A DNA stretch of 24,139 bases from a virus (IMGVR_UViG_3300045988_181603:1-24139); one strand, 5' to 3'; counted from the stretch's first letter, positions 120-19,904 are shown. Made by a program: numbers and translations. Notes: generated by a model from the letters alone, not told the origin.

Positions 120-3100
120 AAGTTCGGGATTATCGAAGCTACTTTCCAATATCGAAAAAATGCTTGCACTAAAAATTTCTTTTTCAGGATTCAAAGATAT
201 GTTTGAAAAATCCTCTGAATTGCTGGAAGACTTCAACTATTTTGATCAGGCATTTAATCAGGTAGCAGAAAACGCAACTAAAACCTGGTCAGAAGCAGGT
301 TACAATTCTGCTGAGGAATACACAAACTCTTTTAGTAAAAAAGCCCGCGAACTAACTTCTAAAATGTCCGGATTCGATATTTCAGATACTGGCATCTTGT
401 CGACAAATAAAACTGGCAAGTCACTCGGCATGGACCCGTCACTACTTTTGAATGCTCAAGCTACATTTGCACAAATATCTTCCTCCATGGGAACAACTTC
501 TGAACAGGCGGCCAATTTGTCCGATGCATTGACCATGTTAGGGGCAGACCTCGCATCTCTCCGAAATGAAGATTTTAGCAAAGTTTATGATAATTTGACT
601 TCAGGTTTGACCGGCATGAGTAGAGCTGTCGATAAATACGGAATCAACATTCGAGTAGCTAACTTGCAGCAGGAAGCGGCAAACCTTGGAATACAAACAT
701 CTGTTTCCAACATGAGTCAGGCTGATAAGGTTCTGTTAAGGACCATCGTTATGCTGGAAAGTTCAAAAGGAGCATGGACGGATTTATCACGGACGATTTC
801 GCTCCCAGTAAACCAAATGCGTATATTCAAGAATAATTTGGCTATGATATCCCGATTGCTAGGAAACACCTTTCTTCCGATTGTAGCAAAGGCATTGCCA
901 TATATCAACGGACTTGCGATTGCTTTTCAGCGTCTCCTAATGGGAATTGGGAATCTGACAGGAGCAAATAAGCAGATCGGGCAAATGTACGGTGGTATCA
1001 CTAAAGGTTCAGATGTGCTTTCGGATGCTCTGGACGCTGTAGATGATACAGATTTATCCGGATTGAATGATACAACAGCTGATGCGGATGATAATTTAAA
1101 GAGTGCTGCTAAAAACGCCAAAAAGTTAAAACAGTTCCTTGCGTCCTATGACGAATTGGAGGTTATGAGCAAAAACGATGATTCATCTACAAGTCTTGGC
1201 TCAACGAAACTTAAAGTACCAGCTGTAGATACATCTGCATTAGACTCAAGCATTTTAAATGATAAATTAAACAGTTTACTTGGAGAATATCAAAAACAGT
1301 GGGATGCCGCCTACAATTCCATGGAAAATAAGGCCATGGCGTTCGCTAATAAAGTGCAGAGCGCTTTTGAAGCTTTAAAAACTGCTGCCGAGCCAACGAC
1401 TCAAGCATTGCAGAAATTATGGAATGAGGGTTTGAAACAGTTCGGAAATTTTACCTGGACATCCCTGAAAGATTTTTGGGAACATTTTCTAAAACCACTT
1501 GGGAAATGGACCTTGGGTAAAAAGGGACTGCCTCGGCTGATAAATGCTTTCAACAACTTCCTGACAAAGATAAAGTGGGGAAAAATCAATAAATCTCTGA
1601 GAAAGTTCTGGGATGCACTGGAACCACTGGCCGAAAATGTCGGTACCGGTATCCTCAACTTTTTCGACGATTTGTCGGAAAAAACAAGTGGATTAGTGAA
1701 CAAGCTTCCGGGTGGCATTGATAAGATAACAGAATTGATAAAGAAAATAAAACCCGAAACTGCGCAGAAGGTCGGATACGCTATCGGGCAGATTGCCACA
1801 TCCTTACTAATGTTCAAAGGATTAAAAAGCATCTCTGGAATTATAGGGAATTCTGGCATTGGTAAGTTCATATCTCAATTGGCCAAACATCCTCTTTTGA
1901 CAATAGCAGGTGGAATAACTGCCATTGTACTGGCCCTTGATAAGTTTGGAGTGATCGATATTGACTGGAGCGGAATCAGTCAGAGCTTTGAGAATCTAAA
2001 AGAACGTGTTGTAAATTTCGCCAAAAAAATTGATTGGAAGACCGTAAGCAATAACATTCAAGAAGGCATTAAAGCCGTTACTGACAAGATATTTGATTTT
2101 ATCGATAAGATTGACTGGAATGCGCTTTGGGAAGGCCTGACAAACACAATAAGCACAGTTTGGACAGGTATCAAAGACTTTGCCGGTTCTATTCACTGGG
2201 ACACAATCAAGGACGGATTAAGTAAGTTTGCTGAGGTATTGCCAGATTTGGCAGCAGGCTTCGGGCAGTTAAGCGCGGATATAATTAATAAATTGGCAGA
2301 TGCCTTTGATTGGTTGATGACTAAACTCAGCACGCTGGATCCAGATACTCTTGAAAAAATTGGATATGGCTTAGGTGTGATTTTCGCAGTCAAAATCGGT
2401 ACGGATTTAGCTGGTAAAATATTAGGTATTGCCAGCTCTTTCTCATCTTTAGGAGTTGCTCTCAAAGGGCTGAAATGGCTAATAAAAAGCGGCGAAGCTT
2501 TGGCGAGTGGTCTTGCTGCTGTTCTTGGTACGGTTGGCGGTGCAGCAGTGATTGGAGCCGGACTTGGTATTGCTGCATCTGAACAAACTGTTGATTCTAA
2601 GGGGAAAGAGCAGCAGTTTGAAGAACAGTCGAATAATTCAAGTTCAGCTGCAAGTCAATTATCTGCTACGTTGAAAGACCTTAATGAAAGAGGAATCATT
2701 ACATCCCAGACGTTCGATACGCTTTCTACGAAGCTTAATTCTTTTGTTGCTGGGACAAGTACAACGACAATATTTACCAGTATGAGAGACGCCATGATTG
2801 AAGCAGGTGTGTCGACAGATGAGCTGGCTGTATCAATCAATAATACAAACAGTGATCTGCAGTCATTCTACAACTTGGTAGCTCATGCGAGTGAAGGTGC
2901 CGGTACCGCAGATGGTCAGATAAAATCTTTTGCAGAAGCGATTAACACAATTAATCCGGATCCAATTATATCTAAGCTGTACACTTTACAGTCTACCGAA
3001 GAGCAGATCACATTTGCAAATCTGATTGTTGAGTCCTCAAATGCAATAGATCAGATGGGTGGCATCTGGGAAAATGGAAAACAGATTCTCGGCGAAAAAG

Positions 3101-4245
3101 CTATTGCGATTTATCAGGCAATTCAGGACGGATTAAAGCCAGATGAGAACGGATTCTACAATCTCGGAAATGGTCAAATGGTGCAATTTGGCAAGGCTAT
3201 TGATGATTATGATAAGACCCTCAAAGAAAAAGCCACATCAACCCTGACAGAGCCACTAAGATTAGGAATATCCGAAGTTCTTCCAGAATACAGCTCGTTT
3301 GGTGCAGACGCAAACGGATGGTTCATCACCGGACTGACAAGCATTGACCCAAGTACCGGCGTAAAGGTACAGGAAGCATTTAAAAGCGTCCTGGATAAGA
3401 TTGATACGACTTCGGCTGAGAGCATCGGAAAGACTACCGGTACGAATATGACAAGCGGAATAACAAAGGGAATGGAAGAAAATTCCCAAGCTGTCAAAGA
3501 TGCTACAAATAAGATGATTGACGATAATGTGAAAACTCCTGCTCAAGATTCTCTCGGCATTCACTCTCCGTCGAAGTGGTTTGAAAACTTGGCGAAATTT
3601 TGCGGTTCTGGGTTCGAGAATGGGCTTGACATTGGCTTTGATGGGGCTTTTACGTGGTTCGAAGGACTGCGAGCTAAAATTAACAATAGCATTGGCTCTC
3701 TTCACAGTGTTGGATGGAACGCCATCATTGGAATGAATAACGGTATGGTCGAGGCGGCAACTCAGCATCTGTACAAGAACGCTCAGGCAATTGCTGAGAA
3801 TATTGTAAATAAATTCCGCACATTTCTCAAAATAAATAGTCCATCACGTGTTATGGCAGAGATTGGTGGTTTTACTGTTGAAGGTATGATTGCTGGTATA
3901 CAATCCAAGATTCCTCGGATGGAAAGTACAATTCAAGATATCAGCAATGAAATTAAAAGGATGCAAACACCTCCCGCTGAATTAATTCCTCAAAATTATT
4001 TTTCTCAAAAACAAAGATTTGACAGCCAAAATCAAATAGATATGAGTAGCTTTATGGATACTGTTGAAAGAGAAGTTATGGCAATCAGCAGTAATGTGTT
4101 TAATAACAATGAATATCTCGGACAAGCAGTCAGAAATAGTCTTAACGGTATGGCAATCTATGCGGACGGACACTTGATTGGATATCTCCAAGAGGAAGAC
4201 CGACAATACAGGAACAGATCTGGCTACGGACTGTTCGAAGGGTAA
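1..4245 (+). CDS. Tail tape measure protein, remainder. The track's GTG start at 34 is internal; the true start is at 23790.
   Basis: Very long helical protein. It has a Gly/Ala-rich hydrophobic central segment (GYGLGVIF...AVLGTVGGAAVIGAGLGIAA) and periodic I/F-D-W repeats. Two C-terminal xHSPS/NSPS motifs (GIHSPSKWF, KINSPSRVM) are typical of siphovirus tape measure proteins. Confidence 0.85.
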   Translation, partial: NLSNFLANIKNVGNSSQRAMPQVKNFSKNLSSIESNAKKGSSGLSKLLSNIEKMLALKISFSGFKDMFEKSSELLEDFNYFDQAFNQVAENATKTWSEAGYNSAEEYTNSFSKKARELTSKMSGFDISDTGILSTNKTGKSLGMDPSLLLNAQATFAQISSSMGTTSEQAANLSDALTMLGADLASLRNEDFSKVYDNLTSGLTGMSRAVDKYGINIRVANLQQEAANLGIQTSVSNMSQADKVLLRTIVMLESSKGAWTDLSRTISLPVNQMRIFKNNLAMISRLLGNTFLPIVAKALPYINGLAIAFQRLLMGIGNLTGANKQIGQMYGGITKGSDVLSDALDAVDDTDLSGLNDTTADADDNLKSAAKNAKKLKQFLASYDELEVMSKNDDSSTSLGSTKLKVPAVDTSALDSSILNDKLNSLLGEYQKQWDAAYNSMENKAMAFANKVQSAFEALKTAAEPTTQALQKLWNEGLKQFGNFTWTSLKDFWEHFLKPLGKWTLGKKGLPRLINAFNNFLTKIKWGKINKSLRKFWDALEPLAENVGTGILNFFDDLSEKTSGLVNKLPGGIDKITELIKKIKPETAQKVGYAIGQIATSLLMFKGLKSISGIIGNSGIGKFISQLAKHPLLTIAGGITAIVLALDKFGVIDIDWSGISQSFENLKERVVNFAKKIDWKTVSNNIQEGIKAVTDKIFDFIDKIDWNALWEGLTNTISTVWTGIKDFAGSIHWDTIKDGLSKFAEVLPDLAAGFGQLSADIINKLADAFDWLMTKLSTLDPDTLEKIGYGLGVIFAVKIGTDLAGKILGIASSFSSLGVALKGLKWLIKSGEALASGLAAVLGTVGGAAVIGAGLGIAASEQTVDSKGKEQQFEEQSNNSSSAASQLSATLKDLNERGIITSQTFDTLSTKLNSFVAGTSTTTIFTSMRDAMIEAGVSTDELAVSINNTNSDLQSFYNLVAHASEGAGTADGQIKSFAEAINTINPDPIISKLYTLQSTEEQITFANLIVESSNAIDQMGGIWENGKQILGEKAIAIYQAIQDGLKPDENGFYNLGNGQMVQFGKAIDDYDKTLKEKATSTLTEPLRLGISEVLPEYSSFGADANGWFITGLTSIDPSTGVKVQEAFKSVLDKIDTTSAESIGKTTGTNMTSGITKGMEENSQAVKDATNKMIDDNVKTPAQDSLGIHSPSKWFENLAKFCGSGFENGLDIGFDGAFTWFEGLRAKINNSIGSLHSVGWNAIIGMNNGMVEAATQHLYKNAQAIAENIVNKFRTFLKINSPSRVMAEIGGFTVEGMIAGIQSKIPRMESTIQDISNEIKRMQTPPAELIPQNYFSQKQRFDSQNQIDMSSFMDTVEREVMAISSNVFNNNEYLGQAVRNSLNGMAIYADGHLIGYLQEEDRQYRNRSGYGLFEG

Positions 4246-4251
4246 TTCAAA

Positions 4252-4292
4252 AGAGCAGGCAAGCAGCAATGTTTGTCCTGCTCTATTTTTTT
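4252..4292 (+). terminator. Rho-independent terminator after the tape measure gene
   Basis: Stem agagcagg (4252-4259) / cctgctct (4277-4284), followed by a T-run. Confidence 0.75.
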
Positions 4293-4305
4293 ATTTTCCT
4301 GGCAC

Positions 4306-4334
4306 TGGCAATATGTAGAATTTTGTGCTATAAT
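4306..4334 (+). promoter_or_regulatory. Sigma-70-type promoter with extended -10
   Basis: TGGCAA - 17 bp - TATAAT (4329-4334), preceded by TGc. Confidence 0.55.
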
Positions 4335-4340
4335 ATAAAT

Positions 4341-4474
4341 GACAATTGAATACAGATAGACAATTAATATATGTAACTAAGAAGACGACTAAAACCGTAA
4401 GCAGACGGAAAGAAAAGGAACAAATAAAAGTTCTGAAAAATATCTGCAAGCGTGTTTTTGTCGTCTTTTTTTAT
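4341..4474 (+). ncRNA. Candidate leader or small RNA ending in a long imperfect hairpin plus U-tract
   Basis: aagacgacTaaaac (from 4382) pairs with gtttttgtcgtctt (to 4467). An inner gcaga/tctgc stem closes an A-rich ~35-nt loop, and a T-run follows. The overlapping 75-aa track ORF has a non-ATG start and no RBS. Confidence 0.4.
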
Positions 4475-4659
4475 TTCAAAAAAAATGGTTTTAGTCACTT
4501 TATTGGAGCTTTTGGAAGAAAAATAAAGTTCATACCTAATTATACTGAAACATACCAGGCGTCTATGCTATGATTCGGGCAACAGGAACGGGAACTATTT
4601 TTTTTGAAACCAAAAGTCAATAATCATTATTACTAAAAACTAAAAAAGGAGGGATTTTT

Positions 4660-4854
4660 GTGAAAAATATGGATATTCGACAGGAGATTGTTCAGAAGCG
4701 GCTTAGATCATATGAAGTAGCGGCTCAAATGCATATATCTGCGTCTAGTTTCTGCAGGTGGCTTCAGACAGATCTTACGCCAGAAAGAAAAGAAAGAATC
4801 CGAATCGCAATCGATGAATTATACCGGAAGAATTTGGAGGCATGTAGTGAGTGA
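4660..4854 (+). CDS. Small helix-turn-helix DNA-binding protein
   Basis: GTG start 6 nt after AGGAGGG. HTH-like segment LRSYEVAAQMHISASSFCRWL. First gene of the pri/rep-like operon. Confidence 0.6.
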   Translation: MKNMDIRQEIVQKRLRSYEVAAQMHISASSFCRWLQTDLTPERKERIRIAIDELYRKNLEACSE

Positions 4855-5425
4855 AATTTTTAAACAAGTTAACCAAGCATTGACCTGTCAGCAAGTAGCT
4901 GAGTGCCTTGGATTTACCGTAAATTCTAAAGGTTTCACGCACAGCCCAATTAATAAAGATGAAAAGACACCATCCTGCAAAATCTATCCCGGGAACCGTG
5001 GATTTTATGATTTTAGCTCTGCCACAGGCGGCGACTCTTTGAAGTTTGCCAGTCTTGTACTGGGCGTTGACAATTGGCAAGCTGCGCAATATTTAATCGG
5101 ATATTTTAATCTCAACATTGATACAAATGGCGATATCAGCAGGGCTGAGTTTGAAAAATTAAAGCGGCAACGCGAAGCCGATCAACTGCGGAAGGCAGTT
5201 GGGAAACAAAAATGGGTCGCTGAAATGGACAACCTGAAAGCTACCATTAGTATTTGTGAGAATCTACTGGTAAGTCCACGCGTTGAACCACTGTCTGACG
5301 TTTGGTGTATGGCAGTCAATCAAAGAAACAAGGCAATCGTCAAGGTAAACAAACTGGTAGGCGTTGAGACATTTGCAGCGGATTTGAGACTACCAGAAAG
5401 AAAAGGACAGAAGAAAGTGGGGTGA
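4847..5425 (+). CDS. Primase CHC2 zinc-finger-like domain protein (degenerate, no TOPRIM domain)
   Basis: GTG at 4847 lies 6 nt after TGGAGG and overlaps the upstream stop. DEKTPSCKIY...FYDFSSATGGDSLKF resembles the DnaG/P4 zinc-binding motif (CPFHxEKTPSF...CFGCGxxGD), but the Cys/His ligands are replaced. Confidence 0.5.
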   Translation: MSEIFKQVNQALTCQQVAECLGFTVNSKGFTHSPINKDEKTPSCKIYPGNRGFYDFSSATGGDSLKFASLVLGVDNWQAAQYLIGYFNLNIDTNGDISRAEFEKLKRQREADQLRKAVGKQKWVAEMDNLKATISICENLLVSPRVEPLSDVWCMAVNQRNKAIVKVNKLVGVETFAADLRLPERKGQKKVG

Positions 5426-6459
5426 TCGCATTGATTGAGAATAAAAAAGATTCGCTTCTGCTATCGTTGGATAGTGTTGAAGAAAAAGAAATCGAATGGC
5501 TTGTACCAGAATACTTACCCAGAGGGCAAATTTGCATCATGGCGGGGGACGGCGGCTCCGGAAAGACTACAATCTGGTGTAGTTTAGCGGCTGCTATAAG
5601 TTCTGGGACGAAGGTATTTTTTGAACGGACACCAGAGGAATTTGTTGAGAAAAAGCCACAAAAGGTACTTTTCTTCAGTTCTGAAGATTCCATTGAATAT
5701 GTGCTCAAAGCCAGATTACGAAAAGCTGGGGCGAATCTCAGTAATATATTTTCTGTTAATCTAAAAAATGAAAAGTTTTCAGAAATTAAATTTAATTCAC
5801 AGTTATTGCGCGATTTAATAGAGCAAGTACAGCCGGCTCTTGTAATCTTTGATCCGGTACAATCATTTATTCCGGATGGCGCGAATATGGCAAAGAGAAA
5901 CGAGATGAGATCTTGTTTAAACCACTTAATCGGCATTGGTGAACAGTATGGGACAACGTCTTTGATCGTCGTTCACACCAATAAGCGCACTGGAGCGTTC
6001 GGGCGAAAAAGAATATCGGATAGTTCGGATATTTGGGATATTGCGAGATCGGCGTTAGTCGTCGGGAACGTGTCAGGGAGCAATTTGCGCTATATGTCGC
6101 AGGAAAAATCAAACTACGGAGAATTAGCGCAGACAGCTTTGTTCAGCATAGATGATTCTGGCGCACACCTGGAAGAATATACAGACCGCCGAGACGCAGA
6201 CTTTGTTCGGGAGCAGGACTTCGAAGGCAGACAGGCACCGCAACGACAGGACGCTGAACAATTTATCAAGGATTTCCTGAGAGGCGGCAAAAAACCAACA
6301 TCAGAACTTGATGAAGCGGCACAAGCTGCAGGAATTAGTCGTTCAAGCCTGACAAGAGCTAAAACGAAGTTACGGAAGGATAATGTAATGAATGTGAAGT
6401 CCGAAGGTTTTGGCGGAAACAAAGTATTTTACAGCTACTTACTCGACCAGCGTTCATAG
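5422..6459 (+). CDS. RecA-fold AAA_25/RepA-like replicative helicase with a C-terminal winged-helix region
   Basis: Walker A GDGGSGKTT, Walker B-like LVIFDPV, SLIVVHTNK. C-terminal HTH-like AGISRSSLTRAKTKL. Start overlaps the upstream stop (GTGA). Confidence 0.75.
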   Translation: MIALIENKKDSLLLSLDSVEEKEIEWLVPEYLPRGQICIMAGDGGSGKTTIWCSLAAAISSGTKVFFERTPEEFVEKKPQKVLFFSSEDSIEYVLKARLRKAGANLSNIFSVNLKNEKFSEIKFNSQLLRDLIEQVQPALVIFDPVQSFIPDGANMAKRNEMRSCLNHLIGIGEQYGTTSLIVVHTNKRTGAFGRKRISDSSDIWDIARSALVVGNVSGSNLRYMSQEKSNYGELAQTALFSIDDSGAHLEEYTDRRDADFVREQDFEGRQAPQRQDAEQFIKDFLRGGKKPTSELDEAAQAAGISRSSLTRAKTKLRKDNVMNVKSEGFGGNKVFYSYLLDQRS

Positions 6460-6473
6460 AGGAAAATTTTAAA

Positions 6474-6666
6474 TGAGTGAGTAAGCTTGAAATCCTTTAT
6501 TTATAAGGGTTCCACTTACTCATCAATGTGAGTGAGTAAAGAGAAAGTGGAGTTACTTATTCACTCACCATGCGGAGTAAGCTAGAACCGCATAAACAGA
6601 GGGTTTGACGTTTATTCACTCACTTATCCGGTTTGTCAATGACATGGGAGAAGTAAGGAGTAAGCA
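6474..6666. repeat. Iteron-like cluster (GAGTGAGTAAG / GAGTAAG core in both orientations); candidate origin for the adjacent helicase
   Basis: Plus-strand copies at 6475-6485, 6530-6540, 6575-6582 and 6658-6665. Inverted copies at 6514-6522, 6556-6566 and 6612-6621. Confidence 0.55.
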
Positions 6667-6736
6667 ATACTGACCTGACAGAGAAAAACAGCAGGCTTTT
6701 TCCTTGTCAGGACTCACAACTTAGAAAGGAGACAAG

Positions 6737-6985
6737 ATGACCTCATTTAAACAGAGTACATATTGGAGCATCTGGGGCGATGCCTGCCGGATACATCAAA
6801 GATATTACGGAACCGCAGAATCAAATGACGCTGCATGGCAATCGCTTATTCAGGAATCTACCGCTTTTAGAAATAAATATAAAAATTCAGATTGTAGTGA
6901 ATTCGCAGAGCAGATGATTTTACTGATTTGTTCTGAGATAAATAAAAAATCGAAAGGAGGTAACACCGATGCCGAGAAGAAATAA
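6737..6985 (+). CDS. Hypothetical protein (82 aa)
   Basis: ATG 6 nt after AAAGGAG; no recognisable motif. Confidence 0.5.
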   Translation: MTSFKQSTYWSIWGDACRIHQRYYGTAESNDAAWQSLIQESTAFRNKYKNSDCSEFAEQMILLICSEINKKSKGGNTDAEKK

Positions 6986-7121
6986 CCGCCCGTCACCACC
7001 ATCCAGCAAGCACGCACTGGATCATTGGATGTCGTTCTGCAGACGGACGATTAAAGCAAATACCACCAATAAGAAAGACAACTGTAACAAACGATTAATT
7101 GATACTAAAAAAGGTAGGTGA
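6969..7121 (+). CDS. Possible small basic protein (50 aa), not in the ORF track
   Basis: ATG 9 nt after GGAGG. Arg/Lys-rich. The stop overlaps the RBS of the next gene. Confidence 0.3.
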   Translation: MPRRNNRPSPPSSKHALDHWMSFCRRTIKANTTNKKDNCNKRLIDTKKGR

Positions 7122-7126
7122 GTTAT

Positions 7127-7735
7127 ATGTCAAACGAATTAATCCGAAAGCGAGATGAGCATGGCGTTCGCATCGCAGGTGCATATTCCAAAAAATACTG
7201 CAAAGACAATGAAGAACTCGGTGATATGCCTGATTTATCGGCCATATTAGGCGTAGCCATTGAACAATTAAATGTCAGAAAAGCTGGCCGAATTCCAGAT
7301 TATGCAGATGATCCGCAGGGAATCGAAAGTTTTGTTTCTGCAACCCAGATGTATTTTGAATATATCACAGAAGCCAATCGCCAAAATGACGAGAAGCTGA
7401 TTCCAGATATAGAGGGGTGGTGTTTGTTCATCGGCGTAACTAAACAGACGGTCCTTAACTACGCCAAACGGAATAATACCTGGAAGGAATTGATTGATTA
7501 CATCAAAGAAAGCATACTCTCAGCAAAGAAACAGCTTGCTTTTCGTTTCAAGATTCCGCCTGTTGTCTATTTGAACGACGTGGCGAATAATCATGGTTAC
7601 CTCAATACAAACGAATTTAAGATAACTACATCTTCAGATTCTGGAATTAATGCTCCAACTCAGACAGCACAGCAGATTGCAGCCAAACACAGAACAGCTC
7701 TGGAGCTTCCGGAAATGGAGAAACCTGTTTTATAA
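7127..7735 (+). CDS. Terminase small subunit-like HTH protein, paralog 1
   Basis: Layout typical of Firmicutes siphophage TerS: MYFEYI...IPDIEGWCLFIGVTKQTVLNYAK...ILSAKKQL...VYLNDVANNHGY. ATG at 7127 follows AAGGTAGG. Confidence 0.55.
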   Translation: MSNELIRKRDEHGVRIAGAYSKKYCKDNEELGDMPDLSAILGVAIEQLNVRKAGRIPDYADDPQGIESFVSATQMYFEYITEANRQNDEKLIPDIEGWCLFIGVTKQTVLNYAKRNNTWKELIDYIKESILSAKKQLAFRFKIPPVVYLNDVANNHGYLNTNEFKITTSSDSGINAPTQTAQQIAAKHRTALELPEMEKPVL

Positions 7736-9049: not shown

Positions 9050-9085
9050 TTGCTGATTACTATAGGATTGTGATACAATCACAAT
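9050..9085 (+). promoter_or_regulatory. Promoter with extended -10, overlapped by an 8-bp inverted-repeat operator
   Basis: TTGCTG - 18 bp - TGaTACAAT (9071-9079). Palindrome attgtgat-aca-atcacaat at 9067-9085. Confidence 0.55.
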
Positions 9086-9165
9086 AAGGAAAGTCAGAAC
9101 ACACAAAAGGCGGCCTGCCCTCTTCGGAGGGGTAACCCTCCAGACGAAAGAAAGGAGGGATGCCA

Positions 9166-9255
9166 ATGATTACATATTCTGAATTAATTCAGACAGGTAT
9201 CTTCATTGTCGGTCTCGTAGGATTGTGCTATACGATCTTCGGGAAAAGAAAATAG
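9166..9255 (+). CDS. Type I toxin candidate, Hol-Tox (putative holin-like toxin) family, 29 aa
   Basis: MITYSELIQTGIFIVGLVGLCYTIFGKRK: M-x-T-Y-S-[DE]-L N-terminus, one TM helix, basic tail. The GGAGGG SD (9154-9159) can be sequestered by CCCTCC (9136-9141). Confidence 0.55.
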   Translation: MITYSELIQTGIFIVGLVGLCYTIFGKRK

Positions 9256-9345
9256 CCGCCCACTACTGCAATAGTGAACGGCTGTTGATAAAACAGCTTA
9301 TTAAATTATTAGGGTAGGTCGCTGTGTGCTGGCTTTCCCTTTTGT
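9243..9345 (-). ncRNA. Candidate cis-antisense antitoxin sRNA overlapping the toxin 3' end
   Basis: Minus-strand promoter TTGATA (9380-9375) - 17 bp - TGgTATATT (-10 at 9357-9352). On the minus strand the hairpin agccg..cacta/tagtg..cggct is followed by ATTTTCTTTT. Confidence 0.35.
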
Positions 9346-9430
9346 ATCTTTAATATACCATCTTTATACCCGTATATCAAGTCCAATTACGCTATTTTAG
9401 AATGTTTTAGGATGTTTTAGCGCGTTTTCG

Positions 9431-16738: not shown

Positions 16739-16850
16739 AATCTGAAATAGAAGATGCGTTTTCATACGTGTATATATTATATACGTTTATATCGTTTAAC
16801 GTTTAGGGGGCCTTGAAACCCTTGATTTTACTGGATTTTTGAGACATAAA

Positions 16851-16975
16851 AACGAGAAATATACAGTAATAAACGAGAAATATACAGTTTAAAAACGAGA
16901 TTTATACAGTTTGCAGAGAGAAAGCCATAATTTTAAAAACGAGAAAAACACAGTTTAAAACGAGAATTTTTACTT
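16851..16975 (+). repeat. Replication iterons (AACGAGAAATATACAGT, 4 good copies plus 1 degenerate) at 21-22 bp phasing
   Basis: Copies at 16851-16867, 16872-16888, 16894-16910, 16938-16954 and 16959-16975. An AT-rich tract lies at 16745-16800. All sit directly upstream of the rep gene. Confidence 0.85.
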
Positions 16976-17031
16976 GAACTTTATCGTTTTAAATGATATG
17001 ATTTATTCATCATTTGTATGGGGGATTTTAT

Positions 17032-17955
17032 ATGGATTTAGCAGAGCATATCTGGAGCACGGATGAAAATAATGAATTGAAAAAACGAGAGATAGACACT
17101 CGTGAATCTGTCCGGACTGTTACATCAAATCAATTTATAACAGCCTGTGGGTTGGAAAATATAAGCCTAAAGGCAAGGAAACTTCTATATGTAGCAATTG
17201 GCCAGTGCAGAGTAACGGATACAGAATTTTATGAGTATTCTCTTTCTGTTAGGGATTTTGCCGCATTGATGGATGTGGACCCCAGTAATGTTTACAGAGA
17301 GGGAGAGTCAATTGCGGATGAACTTTCTAAGGGGTTTATAAAAATCAAACCGGAAAGCAGCACTGTTAAATTCAAGAATTATCCGTTATTCGCGGAATGC
17401 TATATGGACAATGCTAATATCGTTTTTGCTTTAAATAAGCGAATGACCGATTATTTTCTCATGATAAAGGGGAGCTTTACACAGCCATTACTGGCAGATT
17501 TCTTAAAAATGAAAAGTCCTTACAGCATGGCAATTTGGCATCTTATGCAACGAGAGATGAACAGTCAGAAGCCAGGATTAACTCAGACAATAGCTTTTCA
17601 ATTAAGTTTGCAGGAGATACGAGAAGTTACCGGCACTCAGAAGAAATTTGAACGTTTAAGCGATATTAAAAGATATGTGTTGGATAAAGCAATTAGAGAA
17701 ATCGAAGAGAATTGTGGCGTTGTGATCACATACACAAATATCAAGAGAGGTAGAACTGTGACGGGATTTCAGTTTGAGGCAGTATCTGAATTTCATGTAG
17801 ATCCATCTAAAATTAAGCAGTCTACCAGAAATAAAGTAAATGTGAGAAAAACACAGCCGATGATAGAACCCCCAAATAGCGTAAAAAAATCTGCAAATAA
17901 AAATGAAGTACCTGGACAGGAAAGCATATTTGATATTTTGGAAAAATTGCAGTAG
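17032..17955 (+). CDS. rep: Rep_3 (RepB-like) theta-replication initiator protein
   Basis: VTSNQFITACGLENISLKARKLLYVAIGQ..., YSMAIWHLMQ..., LSLQEIREVTG...RLSDIKRYVLDKAIREIEENCGVVITYTNIKRGRTVTGFQFE match the Rep_3 pattern. Iterons lie upstream. A TGaTATGAT -10 lies near 16994. Confidence 0.85.
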   Translation: MDLAEHIWSTDENNELKKREIDTRESVRTVTSNQFITACGLENISLKARKLLYVAIGQCRVTDTEFYEYSLSVRDFAALMDVDPSNVYREGESIADELSKGFIKIKPESSTVKFKNYPLFAECYMDNANIVFALNKRMTDYFLMIKGSFTQPLLADFLKMKSPYSMAIWHLMQREMNSQKPGLTQTIAFQLSLQEIREVTGTQKKFERLSDIKRYVLDKAIREIEENCGVVITYTNIKRGRTVTGFQFEAVSEFHVDPSKIKQSTRNKVNVRKTQPMIEPPNSVKKSANKNEVPGQESIFDILEKLQ

Positions 17956-17967
17956 GAAGGTATGGAT

Positions 17968-18069
17968 ATGACGGAAAAACAAAGAATCATGATTCAAGAA
18001 CTGGAAGATTTTATGTCCTGTTATAAGGGGCTTTATGACTTAATAGATACCTTGATGGATAGATGGTAA
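17968..18069 (+). CDS. Possible small protein (33 aa), not in the ORF track
   Basis: ATG 7 nt after AGGAAGG, immediately after the rep stop. Confidence 0.3.
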   Translation: MTEKQRIMIQELEDFMSCYKGLYDLIDTLMDRW

Positions 18070-18178
18070 AAATAATATTACATTATTTACTAGATTATGA
18101 TAGAGTAAATTTATAATATACAGATTATAGTCTGATAATGATCAAATATCTATCCATACAGAAAAGAGGAGAAGGATA

Positions 18179-19162
18179 ATGGATTTATCTACAATAGAAA
18201 AGGAAATTCAAACTGTTATTGAAGCAGATAAAGCATCATGGATAAGAATTTATCAGTTGATGTCAGAGGTAGAATCAGAGAAATTATATGAGAATACTTA
18301 TAGCTCCTATACTCAATGGGTAAATAAAATTGCTGAGAACATGCATATTCATGTATCACTGTTATGGCGCAGAAAAAAAGCAGGAGCTTTTTATAGTGAA
18401 TATTTAAAGCGAATGGAAGCCAGAGGAAAGAAAGTTTCTTTTGATGATATTGAGAGAGTATCACCAGACAATTTAGTTCTGGCAGAGAGAATTGCTGGTA
18501 ATAATACTGCAATTGCGGATCAGCTGATTGAGAAAATACAGCAAGGAGAACTTAAGCGAAAAGACTTATCAAGCGCATTGGCAGCAGCTAAACGTTGTCG
18601 AGCTGAAAAAGGTATTCCTGATCCAGTTAATGGGTATGATAAGCAGAAGCTCCAAGAGCAGAAAGAAACAGACGAAGCAATCAAACCTGATCAGAAAAAA
18701 ATTACTGCAATGGATATTATGGCAGCTCTTGAGATATACCGGCATTGGATAGGAGAGCCTATTGAGAAGCAGGGACGGGTACCAAAATATAAAGTATTTG
18801 GAGAATTTGCTGTTGATTCTCCGGGAACACGAAATGCCAGGAGAATTGACGCTTTAGTTGCAGAAACAATTACTGCAAAATATCCCAGACAAATAAAATT
18901 GCATGGAATTGAGATAAAAGTATCTCGATCAGATTTAGAACATGATGATAAAATGGCAGAATATACCCAGTATGTTGACTGCTTCTGGATTGCAATACCA
19001 CCGCATCTTGTGGATGATGCTAAGGACCTGGCAATGCCTTGTTGGGGAATTTTATCTGTTGACGAAGAAAAACTGGAAGTAGTTCGAAATGCTTCTAACA
19101 ATGCGGAATATGGCATATTCAGAGATGTTGCGCTGTCAGAAATCATATATAAATTAATGTAG
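18179..19162 (+). CDS. Two-domain protein: N-terminal helical/DNA-binding-like region + C-terminal MmcB-like PD-(D/E)xK nuclease fold
   Basis: RRIDALVAE...LHGIEIKVSRSDLEHDDKMAEYTQYVDCFWIAIP resembles the D...E-x-K core and K-x-x-Y segment of the MmcB/DUF1052 family. Confidence 0.5.
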   Translation: MDLSTIEKEIQTVIEADKASWIRIYQLMSEVESEKLYENTYSSYTQWVNKIAENMHIHVSLLWRRKKAGAFYSEYLKRMEARGKKVSFDDIERVSPDNLVLAERIAGNNTAIADQLIEKIQQGELKRKDLSSALAAAKRCRAEKGIPDPVNGYDKQKLQEQKETDEAIKPDQKKITAMDIMAALEIYRHWIGEPIEKQGRVPKYKVFGEFAVDSPGTRNARRIDALVAETITAKYPRQIKLHGIEIKVSRSDLEHDDKMAEYTQYVDCFWIAIPPHLVDDAKDLAMPCWGILSVDEEKLEVVRNASNNAEYGIFRDVALSEIIYKLM

Positions 19163-19435
19163 AATTTCTATTTTACTAGATAATGTTCTAGTAAAAGGCT
19201 GTAAGGGGAGCATCTCGGAAAAGTAAGGAAATACGGCTGTAAGAGCGGTGTACCTTCGGGTACGATCGTGTCAAAAATGAAAAAAAATGACATTAGTATA
19301 CTGTTGAAAATATGAGAAATTATGATATTATAAAGTCAAGATGCAGTAGCTCATGGTTGATAGCATAGAACAATATATTATAAGATATTACAGAACTTCC
19401 GTTAAATAAAAATTATTATTTTGGAGGTAATGTAT

Positions 19436-19702
19436 ATGTACAGCTTAACAACATTAAGAAAAAGAGCCTATGAGGCTGGTTATAGAATCGAGAAAGGATT
19501 TCAGCATTATATGTATAACGGTGCTGTTTGCAGAGATTGCAACGGGGATGCGTATACGGGATATAATGTGTGGGATTTATCGAATAATCAACTTGTATGG
19601 GGAAGTGGTTGCTATGATGGTAATTATGATCACTTATGTACATTGGAAGATGTTGAAGAGTTTTTAAAAGAAGCATATGAGAGAGCCGGGTTGACCTGGT
19701 AA
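19436..19702 (+). CDS. Hypothetical Cys/Tyr-rich small protein (88 aa)
   Basis: ATG 8 nt after GGAGG; no recognised motif. Confidence 0.5.
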   Translation: MYSLTTLRKRAYEAGYRIEKGFQHYMYNGAVCRDCNGDAYTGYNVWDLSNNQLVWGSGCYDGNYDHLCTLEDVEEFLKEAYERAGLTW

Positions 19703-19730
19703 TTTTCTCACTACCATGAAAAGACTGCAG

Positions 19731-19778
19731 AAAACAGGAATTATCTTTTAACGGGGATATTTCCTGTTTTTTTGTTTT
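19731..19778 (+). terminator. Rho-independent terminator
   Basis: aaaacaggaa / ttcctgtttt stem followed by TTTGTTTT. Confidence 0.65.
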
Positions 19779-19800
19779 AAAAGACGCCAAAAGTTGTATA

Positions 19801-19829
19801 TTGATTTCAAATTTAACATATGCTATAAT
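19801..19829 (+). promoter_or_regulatory. Strong promoter of the antitoxin-like sRNA
   Basis: TTGATT - 17 bp - TGcTATAAT. Confidence 0.65.
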
Positions 19830-19835
19830 GCCAAT

Positions 19836-19904
19836 AGGCAAAAACGATGTGAGTATCCATGTTGGTACTCGAAAAGCCCCGGAGGTACGAACTCCGGGGC
19901 TTTT
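19836..19904 (+). ncRNA. Candidate type I antitoxin sRNA (RNA II-like, ~68 nt)
   Basis: Runs from the promoter above to the intrinsic terminator. It carries AAAAACGATGTGA and TCCATGTTGG, which also occur at 20014-20040 and are therefore complementary to the minus-strand toxin mRNA start region. Confidence 0.55.
19872..19904. terminator. Bidirectional intrinsic terminator shared by the convergent sRNA and toxin mRNA
   Basis: AAAA-gccccggag-gtacgaa-ctccggggc-TTTT. Confidence 0.75.

Follow-up and report, generated by a model that had tools for sequence, protein, structure and literature searches.

Introduction

In RSF1010, RepA acts as a helicase only, origin recognition being left to RepC and priming to RepB'. 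In the replication modules of Staphylococcus aureus pathogenicity islands (SaPIs), pri lies upstream of rep, the origin lies directly downstream with oppositely oriented iterons on each side, and the C-terminal domain of Rep contains a winged helix (PMC9371898). The minimal replicon of pRN1 requires sequence downstream of the helicase gene (PMC4234260), and in the pCD630-family plasmids of Clostridioides difficile the putative replication protein is a CHC2 domain fused to a helicase (bioRxiv 10.1101/198473). Here, we describe a replication module in a stretch of viral DNA of 24,139 nucleotides (IMGVR_UViG_3300045988_181603:1-24139; hereafter designated the window), whose first 119 nt are identical to its last 119 nt, and which therefore represents a closed circle of ~24,020 bp. 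The element is a ~24-kb circular, ParA-partitioned, satellite-like plasmid that also carries a Rep_3/iteron replicon. In the module, genes for a helix-turn-helix (HTH) protein, for a protein related to the zinc-binding domain (ZBD) of DnaG primase (hereafter designated the ZBD-only protein), and for an AAA_25 helicase are followed by a field of short repeats. The sequence comparisons support a replication module with SaPI-like architecture but with a different helicase superfamily and no primase catalytic domain, and we consider it quite probable that an autonomous replicon, of the type in which a self-loading initiator-helicase is combined with a downstream origin, is located at about 4545–6666.

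Results

The operon and the adjoining repeat field

The three open reading frames (ORFs) of the module are all intact and overlap one another on the plus strand. The first (4660–4854) encodes a 64-aa HTH protein with a weak match to HTH_23 (E 0.011) and a match to phrog_17740 (E 1e-12), which is probably a regulator of the module. It overlaps by 8 nt the gene for the 192-aa ZBD-only protein (4847–5425), whose GTG start at 4847 is preceded by GGAGG and agrees with the N-termini of 17 homologues. The latter gene in turn overlaps by 4 nt that for the 345-aa AAA_25 helicase (5422–6459), the GTG start of the helicase and the stop codon of the ZBD gene being joined in GTGA. Thus, the three-product operon beginning with a small HTH protein, which an earlier note on this DNA had proposed, is indeed found at these positions. 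A promoter and terminator scan over 4200–7200 returned sites no commoner than in shuffled sequence, and the site at 4545–4574 is a mere consensus match.

The iteron field, which is the proposed origin, extends over 6474–6666 with words in both orientations, the first of them standing 14 nt past the helicase stop codon, in agreement with the earlier placement of the repeats within 15 bp of the operon. The circle contains six exact copies of GAGTAAG; four fall within the 277-nt spacer, against an expectation of 0.07, and this spacer also holds 10 of the 56 copies with up to one mismatch (0.65 expected). A 12-mer, TGAGTGAGTAAG (up to two mismatches), occurs at 6474 (+) and 6529 (+) in the left arm and at 6556 (−) and 6611 (−) in the right arm, with a spacing of 55 bp in each arm, and is accompanied by short GAGTAAG words at 6515 (−), 6575 (+), 6651 (+), and 6658 (+). 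The field as a whole constitutes an imperfect 70-nt inverted repeat, and its folding as single-stranded DNA gave z = −4.4. In the entire element, only this field, the Rep_3 iterons, and the interval 17951–18250 contain a 7-mer at least four times per 300 nt. Inside the proposed origin, a small conserved hairpin (6571–6592, +) consists of TGCGG, 12 nt, and CCGCA, followed by TAAA; it has an equivalent position in the origins of the related loci L052, L014, and L035, the stem changes being partly compensatory, and could be a priming or loading signal.

Exchange of helicase and repeats as one cassette

For comparison, 58 loci were retrieved; the ZBD-only protein has 62 close homologues, all metagenomic, and the contigs carrying them cluster at ~14.4 kb and ~24 kb. 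Alignment of the window with the locus L001 revealed 97.6% identity over 4596–5371 and 92.5% identity from 6662 onward, with no similarity over 5372–6661. This unshared block, with its right breakpoint at 6661/6662, takes in the final 18 ZBD codons, the complete helicase gene, and exactly the repeat field; in its place, L001 has a gene for an unrelated AAA_25 protein of 358 aa and, after it, CCGTTGATTA/ATTGATA words. L001 and also L002 share with the window an identical HTH protein (100%), a ZBD-only protein of 92% identity, and two identical small-terminase-like proteins (TerS1 and TerS2, 100%), whereas the helicase (another AAA_25) and the repeats differ. Conversely, in the six loci L038–L043 the helicase is 100% identical to that of the window and the repeat field is almost invariant, whereas the HTH protein (45–55% identity), the ZBD-only protein (56–58%), and the 82-aa ORF located downstream of the field (46–49%) have diverged, and L043 carries another TerS. 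Judging from these alignments, the helicase gene and the repeats are one cassette, which elements of nearly the same sequence elsewhere exchange as a whole. Of the genes compared, only the helicase gene co-segregates with the repeats, which excludes the HTH, ZBD-only, 82-aa, and TerS proteins as repeat binders and, with them, readings of the repeats as a pac site or an operator.

The pairing is also evident at finer scale. Among homologous helicases with 62–79% identity to that of the window, the origin scaffolds are alignable and all iteron copies change in concert with the recognition helix of the predicted winged helix. The window and L052 have the iteron TGAGTGARTAAG together with the recognition helix GISRSSLxRAKTKLR; the corresponding pairs are TGAGGGARTAAA and GISSATLSRAKTSLR in L014, TGGGGTARTAAG and GISKNTLNRAKTALR in L035, and TGAGCAAGCAA and GITVSTLRRAKEELR in L015. 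The origin words read TGAGGGAGTAA in L014 and TGGGGTAGTAA in L035, and the recognition-helix segment of the window that corresponds to GISSATLSRAKTSLR of L014 is GISRSSLTRAKTKLR. Residues around the invariant R312-A313-K314 vary between loci with unlike iterons and are near-identical, with a single T/A substitution, in loci sharing the iteron, so that the predicted recognition helix co-varies with the iterons in five loci. Moreover, most helicase genes, of four classes, are directly followed by 4–12 copies of a locus-specific 7–9-mer. Of the 19 loci tested, eight have no background interval equaling the observed repeat count, and four more, the window included, have at most seven such intervals. 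These comparisons of sequences support the view that helicase and iterons form a cognate pair, that is, one specificity unit.

The helicase and its predicted winged helix

The helicase matched Pfam AAA_25 with E 4e-27 (95.4 bits; cut-off 27), and in 25 homologues neither its Walker A motif GDGGSGKT (G42-x-G-G-x-G-K48-T49) nor Walker B D144 varies. By Foldseek, its fold matches RadA, RecA, and RSF1010 RepA (TM-score normalized to the target, 0.67–0.69; probability 1.00), and the matches include DnaB; a sequence search of the Protein Data Bank (PDB) with the helicase profile yielded weak RadA matches only. In the AlphaFold2 (AF2) model, residues 273–340 (6238–6441, +) form a winged helix with predicted local distance difference test (pLDDT) values of 82–92, consisting of helices 273–286, 293–302, and 307–319 and a β-hairpin (323–328/335–340), which is the predicted iteron reader. 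Thus, the RepA/AAA_25 helicase with a C-terminal winged helix described in the earlier note is recovered, the latter domain as a structural prediction. A DnaB-type N-terminal primase-docking domain is absent. At least 44 contigs encode this helicase with 100% identity. Fusions to Prim-Pol and PriCT_1 occur among its homologues (P0083 and P0098) and point to a replicative role of the helicase. In L017, a Lachnospiraceae relative, the helicase gene (2744–4081) was found by tblastn in two pieces (2744–3550 and 3857–4081) with ~300 nt between them, a segment being apparently inserted ahead of the region that encodes the C-terminal winged helix.

The ZBD-only protein

The 192-aa protein matched Pfam Zn_ribbon_DnaG with E 1e-4 (22.5 bits), slightly under the gathering score of 24.9. 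A profile built from 18 family members matched the zinc-binding domains of DnaG from Aquifex (2au3, E 5.8e-6) and Bacillus (1d0q), and these two structures were also the top Foldseek matches (probability 1.00) of the AF2 model (pLDDT 78.5), with a TM-score normalized to 1d0q of 0.60. In both the profile and the structure alignments, the ligand positions C, H, C, and C of DnaG correspond to S33, N36, D55, and S57. The predicted resemblance to a CHC2 motif with all four ligands substituted therefore persisted in alignment to zinc-finger profiles. S33, D55, and S57 are invariant in the family, indicating selection. The C-terminal half is modeled as a helical hairpin (helices 99–142 and 151–171); it gave no informative Foldseek match and is unlike the helicase-binding domain of DnaG. 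Pfam, PHROGs, and NCBIfam revealed no TOPRIM or archaeo-eukaryotic primase (AEP) domain in the protein, as had been anticipated for TOPRIM. PADLOC matched it to a DnaG-like accessory protein of defense-associated reverse transcriptase (DRT) systems (E 4.6e-8), and PADLOC and NCBIfam gave nothing further than similarity to DnaG zinc-binding domains and to KaiC-like proteins.

A profile search of 1.84 billion representatives showed the family to be large, with 4054 clusters, formed at 50% identity, at E ≤1e-3 and 687 at E ≤1e-10. The best 150 representatives have a median length of 185 aa, only four exceeding 300 aa; about 60 of them retain CPFH...CFGC, the motif kept in distant stand-alone relatives, and about 28 show the ligand-less S...D pattern. 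Such mixed ligand patterns in a stand-alone family indicate that loss of the zinc site is a derived trait of one sub-clade. The ZBD-only family, most members of which have an intact CHC2 motif, as does the L027 protein, is thus large and uncharacterized. Its members sit ahead of four unrelated helicase classes, namely AAA_25, D5_N/DUF5906/Pox_D5 (superfamily 3, SF3), DUF927+HTH_56, and VapE-like, adjoining the helicase genes, usually with translational coupling, in dozens of loci. As noted above for L001 and L002, a ZBD-only protein of 92% identity can stand beside two unrelated AAA_25 helicases. Co-variation of the ZBD C-terminal tail with the helicase type was considered as evidence for a contact and rejected: the tail shares its coding sequence with the ribosome-binding site and start of the helicase gene and falls within the recombination cassette, so that linkage alone is a sufficient explanation.

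The Rep_3 replicon and sister elements

The Rep_3 replicon (16849–17955, +) consists of ~5.5 direct 21-bp iterons (AAAACGAGAAATATACAGTTT, 16849–16966, detected by Tandem Repeats Finder) followed by the initiator gene (17032–17955), whose start coincides with that in public gene calls. Both domains scored above their cut-offs (Rep3_N, E 1.9e-21, 77.3 bits; Rep3_C, E 2.4e-15, 56.9 bits), so the Rep_3 initiator and iteron origin attributed earlier to this element are real. In the assembly collection, 521 blocks contain the exact Rep_3 protein, the contigs being no larger than 20–50 kb, which marks the element as a very common extrachromosomal gut element. The interval 17951–18250 holds four ATGGATA/TATCCAT copies between the Rep_3 gene and a 327-aa ORF that has weak MmcB-like and PHROG 'DNA repair' matches.

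The sister elements of ~14 kb were never found in contigs larger than 20 kb. One of them, L032, is a closed 14.6-kb circle (141-nt overlap) with ParA, a recombinase, the series HTH-ZBD-AAA_25-repeats-TerS, and a resolvase, in which neither Rep_3 nor another recognizable initiator was found. L052 (14.2 kb) likewise has neither Rep_3 nor a different recognizable initiator and carries ParA, a helicase 79% identical to that of the window, and the same iterons. These ~14-kb elements look like plasmids relying on the ZBD-helicase module. In L032, the two ORF-free stretches described below (see Discussion) are relatively GC-rich by eye, have no Rfam match, and are in part 80–88% identical to 9085–9367 and 19318–19776 of the window; they are possibly large non-coding RNAs or an unrecognized origin.

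In the 24-kb family, Rep_3 is constant and at least three helicase/origin cassettes circulate. Rep_3 also co-resides with the ZBD-helicase module where it is just 51% identical, together with other helicase classes (L056/L003, L057/L007, and L058/L006). Such co-residence across divergent relatives indicates that the two-replicon state is evolutionarily stable and not accidental. Rep_3 is an addition confined to the 20–24-kb class, whereas the ZBD-helicase module is family-wide. Hence, the earlier description of a 'second' module holds in that a separate module exists beside Rep_3, but the ordinal is arguable. More distant relatives of the module occur in metagenome-assembled genomes and isolates of Hungatella, Petralouisia, Mediterraneibacter, Schaedlerella, and other Lachnospiraceae and Clostridia. 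L035 is an integrated relative in the chromosome of Schaedlerella arabinosiphila (AQFU02000003.1, 3647881–3660906) with, in this order, a minus-strand ORF of 348 aa, genes for a DUF6462 HTH protein, for a ligand-less ZBD protein of 169 aa, and for an AAA_25 helicase with 66% identity, the iterons, a TerS gene (GP3_package), and a gene for a tape-measure-like protein of 1709 aa; its layout indicates that the module is also present in chromosomal islands.

Other features of the carrier element

Elsewhere, the element encodes a 1403-aa homologue of tape-measure proteins (TMPs; PHROG TMP families, E 1e-31 and weaker), the two small-terminase-like proteins TerS1 and TerS2 downstream of the 82-aa ORF, a serine resolvase, a Bro-N/KilAC antirepressor, ParA, the Rep_3 initiator, and a protein with a weak tyrosine-recombinase match. 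Capsid, portal, large terminase, and tail tube genes were not found in the gene content of the window. The plasmid genes (ParA, Rep_3, and resolvase) beside TMP, two TerS genes, and the antirepressor give the element a resemblance to a plasmid-borne phage satellite with its own tape measure. A blastn search with 4400–7100 against phage and plasmid collections gave zero matches, and Rfam at gathering thresholds gave no matches in the window or L032.

The 82-aa ORF (6737–6985), lying between the proposed origin and the TerS genes, has no family match; its position is kept in nearly all relatives (28–49% identity), and it changes independently of both the helicase and TerS. Upstream of this ORF and the TerS genes, just beyond the exchanged cassette, stands a stem-loop, CCTGACAG...CTTGTCAGG (inverted repeat I2; 6674–6711, +), within the backbone common to the window and L001. 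Its stem is retained and its loop is variable in L039, L041, and L043, and it may be a regulatory element for the packaging operon. A 141-aa minus-strand ORF (19416–19841) is probably spurious; gene calls in relatives favor the overlapping plus-strand 93-aa ORF (19421–19702), whose counterparts in L032 and L052 are 88 aa long, and the local DNA is 88% conserved.

Discussion

A proposed self-loading initiator-helicase and rival readings

From the gene content, folds, repeat statistics, cassette boundaries, co-segregation, and co-variation described above, we infer how DNA binding, helicase loading, and the ZBD-only protein might work together. The three genes would be transcribed as one translationally coupled operon. 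The C-terminal winged helix of the helicase would read the TGAGTGAGTAAG/GAGTAAG words, which take opposite orientations on each side of the field, and the helicase would assemble there, probably as one hexamer per arm, melt the DNA, and then serve as the replicative helicase. The SaPI Reps provide a model for the loading of hexamers on either side and for DNA opening (PMC9371898). The ZBD-only protein may be an accessory replication factor derived from a DnaG-type primase, in which the template- and partner-contacting zinc-ribbon fold was kept, now devoid of metal ligands, and a helical hairpin added. With a helicase devoid of a DnaB-type N-terminal domain, the host primase would be left without its normal docking site; presumably, and this is the speculative step, the ZBD-only protein most likely couples the foreign helicase, or else the template, to priming by the host primase.

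Several observations weigh against this account. Where the iterons are degenerate (clusters 1 and 2, L001, and L015), counts of exact 7-mers did not reach significance, and the inverted-cluster layout becomes visible only by repeat search. The field contains no clearly AT-rich unwinding element, the GC content in 30-nt windows over 6460–6670 being 0.30–0.50 and that at the field center (6540–6560) 0.37–0.43, as compared with the element average of ~0.40; nor does the GC skew, which mostly tracks gene orientation, have an origin signature at ~6.5 kb. In L032, two ORF-free stretches of ~1.2 kb each (2985–4212 and 4711–5897) could hide an unrecognized origin, so that the lack of another replicon there is unproven. 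Finally, the occurrence of one ZBD-only protein beside two unrelated AAA_25 helicases speaks against its being bound closely to one particular helicase.

Rival readings concern the repeats, the ZBD-only protein, the state of the module, and its division of labor with Rep_3. Other phages have arrays of sites to which the small terminase binds, and the field here is located between the helicase and the packaging genes; the repeats might accordingly be a pac site or an operator for TerS, the 82-aa protein, or the HTH protein, with the helicase serving another role. We regard this as very improbable, since TerS1, TerS2, and the HTH protein are fully conserved in L001 despite its different repeats, while the 82-aa ORF, the HTH protein, and the TerS of L043 differ where the repeats are identical; in addition, the iterons co-vary with the predicted winged helix of the helicase, and the gene-then-repeats layout recurs in distant loci with other downstream genes. 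The loss of zinc ligands and the presence of a second complete replicon on the element would also suit a module in decay or already inactive, left over from an ancestral replicon and rendered superfluous by the acquisition of Rep_3. This reading is hardly credible for a module with intact ORFs, a helicase kept identical across its many contigs with invariant catalytic motifs, substituted ZBD residues that are themselves invariant, and cassettes that are actively exchanged with matched iterons kept in each.

The same ligand loss, the lack of a catalytic domain, the pairing of one ZBD-only protein with unrelated helicases, and the DRT accessory match, which shows that ZBD modules occur in defense systems too, could mean that the protein is a regulator, an anti-helper or anti-host decoy sequestering primase or helicase, or a hitch-hiker of the operon. 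However, it is conserved directly upstream of, and coupled to, four replicative helicase classes in dozens of loci, its family is large with the CHC2 motif mostly intact, and pCD630-type plasmids fuse CHC2 to a putative replication helicase (bioRxiv 10.1101/198473), all of which make a decoy or regulator unlikely. Less easily dismissed is a division of labor in which Rep_3 provides low-copy maintenance and the helicase module stays silent until a helper phage or another signal calls for amplification and TerS-directed packaging, as in satellites of the SaPI and phage-inducible chromosomal island (PICI) type. The 82-aa ORF and two TerS-like genes come directly after the module, as in PICIs, and the integrated Schaedlerella relative shares the module-TerS-TMP order; a TMP homologue and a Bro-N/KilAC antirepressor are present, with no capsid, portal, or large terminase; and the persistence of Rep_3 beside the module, despite 51% Rep_3 identity and three helicase classes, suggests non-redundant roles. 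However, the circular 14-kb elements with ParA have no Rep_3, so that their maintenance, too, must fall to the module if no further replicon is concealed there; neither a helper phage nor a link to an inducer or repressor was identified; and no sign of conditional expression was seen in the sequence, the promoter scan remaining at chance level. Separate maintenance and amplification modes are thus a plausible proposal, to which we give somewhat less than an even chance. A bolder extension combines such phage-triggered amplification of the cassette, alongside Rep_3 maintenance, with a general role of ZBD-only proteins as widespread 'primase adaptors': catalytically empty DnaG descendants that would allow a mobile-element helicase to use the catalytic domain of the host primase in trans, mimicking the cross-talk between the ZBD and the RNA polymerase domain (RPD), in the clade of the window without zinc. 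As a whole, this combination is rather doubtful. The autonomous replicon with a self-loading initiator-helicase remains, in our judgment, the best explanation.

Such a replicon would bring a RecA-fold AAA_25 protein with a winged helix into a design, that of a self-loading initiator-helicase with an origin next to it, already familiar from SaPIs, staphylococcal cassette chromosome mec (SCCmec)-like elements, P4, and pRN1. The natural series of matched helicases and iterons (TGAGTGA, TGAGGGA, TGGGGTA, and TGAGCAA) may be usable for mapping a recognition code, and the large uncharacterized family of stand-alone, TOPRIM-less DnaG ZBDs beside four helicase classes in clostridial mobile elements raises the question of how priming takes place. 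Moreover, the carrier merges plasmid partition and replication with satellite-like packaging genes, and knowledge of the origin used in each condition would show how such an element persists and spreads in the gut.

Relation to described replication systems

In structure, the ATPase comes closest to RSF1010 RepA (PDB 1G8Y, 1NLF, and 1OLO), with which the helicase of the window shares the core fold and Pfam AAA_25. Unlike RepA, it has a fused predicted winged helix and adjoining iterons, so that initiator and helicase functions are apparently combined. The ZBD-only protein shares with the zinc-binding domain of DnaG (1D0Q and 2AU3) the fold and a recognizable sequence at residues ~20–90, including the EKTPS and GGD motifs, but it is a stand-alone protein of 192 aa with a helical hairpin, has S, N, D, and S in place of the ligands, and contains neither the TOPRIM RNA-polymerase domain nor the DnaB-binding C-terminal domain.

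The pCD630 family is alike in being clostridial, in lacking a classical Rep, and in having a modular backbone with integrase and resolvase. It differs in that CHC2 and a superfamily 2 (DEAD/DEAH) helicase form one protein; the corresponding domain of the window is separate, ligand-less, and placed beside an AAA_25 helicase with Rep_3 co-resident. The orf56/orf904 region of pRN1 (PMC4234260) and the α protein of phage P4 share with the module an operon of a small regulator and a primase/helicase and an essential origin downstream of the helicase gene, although in those systems an active primase domain and an SF3 helicase are contained in a single polypeptide.

The likeness is most extensive with SaPIs and PICIs (SaPI1, SaPIbov1, and SaPI5; PMC9371898), which show the same order of small regulator, primase-derived gene, initiator-helicase, 3' origin, and terS. 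Their short iterons are oppositely oriented on both sides, as are 6474 (+) and 6529 (+) versus 6556 (−) and 6611 (−) here; a C-terminal winged helix of the helicase, predicted in our case, is the presumed iteron reader; and elements can exchange helicase types that are unrelated in sequence and bring their own origins. The relatives L008, L023, and L027 even carry DUF927+HTH_56 helicases of the Cch/SaPI-Rep type. In contrast, the helicase of the window is a RecA-fold AAA_25 protein and not an SF3 or minichromosome maintenance (MCM)-like AAA+ protein, although relatives do have D5_N/SF3 or DUF927+HTH_56 types at this position; the 'pri' slot holds the ZBD-only protein without a catalytic primase domain or zinc ligands; the iterons measure 7–12 nt instead of 5–6 nt; the field is without a clear AT-rich center; and the element is a ParA/Rep_3 plasmid and not an integrated island. 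As three SaPI features, namely the helicase superfamily, a catalytic Pri, and an AT-rich center, are not shared, the module is SaPI-like in its proposed working and not a member by homology. Collectively, it may be concluded that the gene-then-iterons order mirrors the pri-rep-ori arrangement of SaPIs and PICIs, as the earlier note had suggested, and that this likeness is one of architecture.

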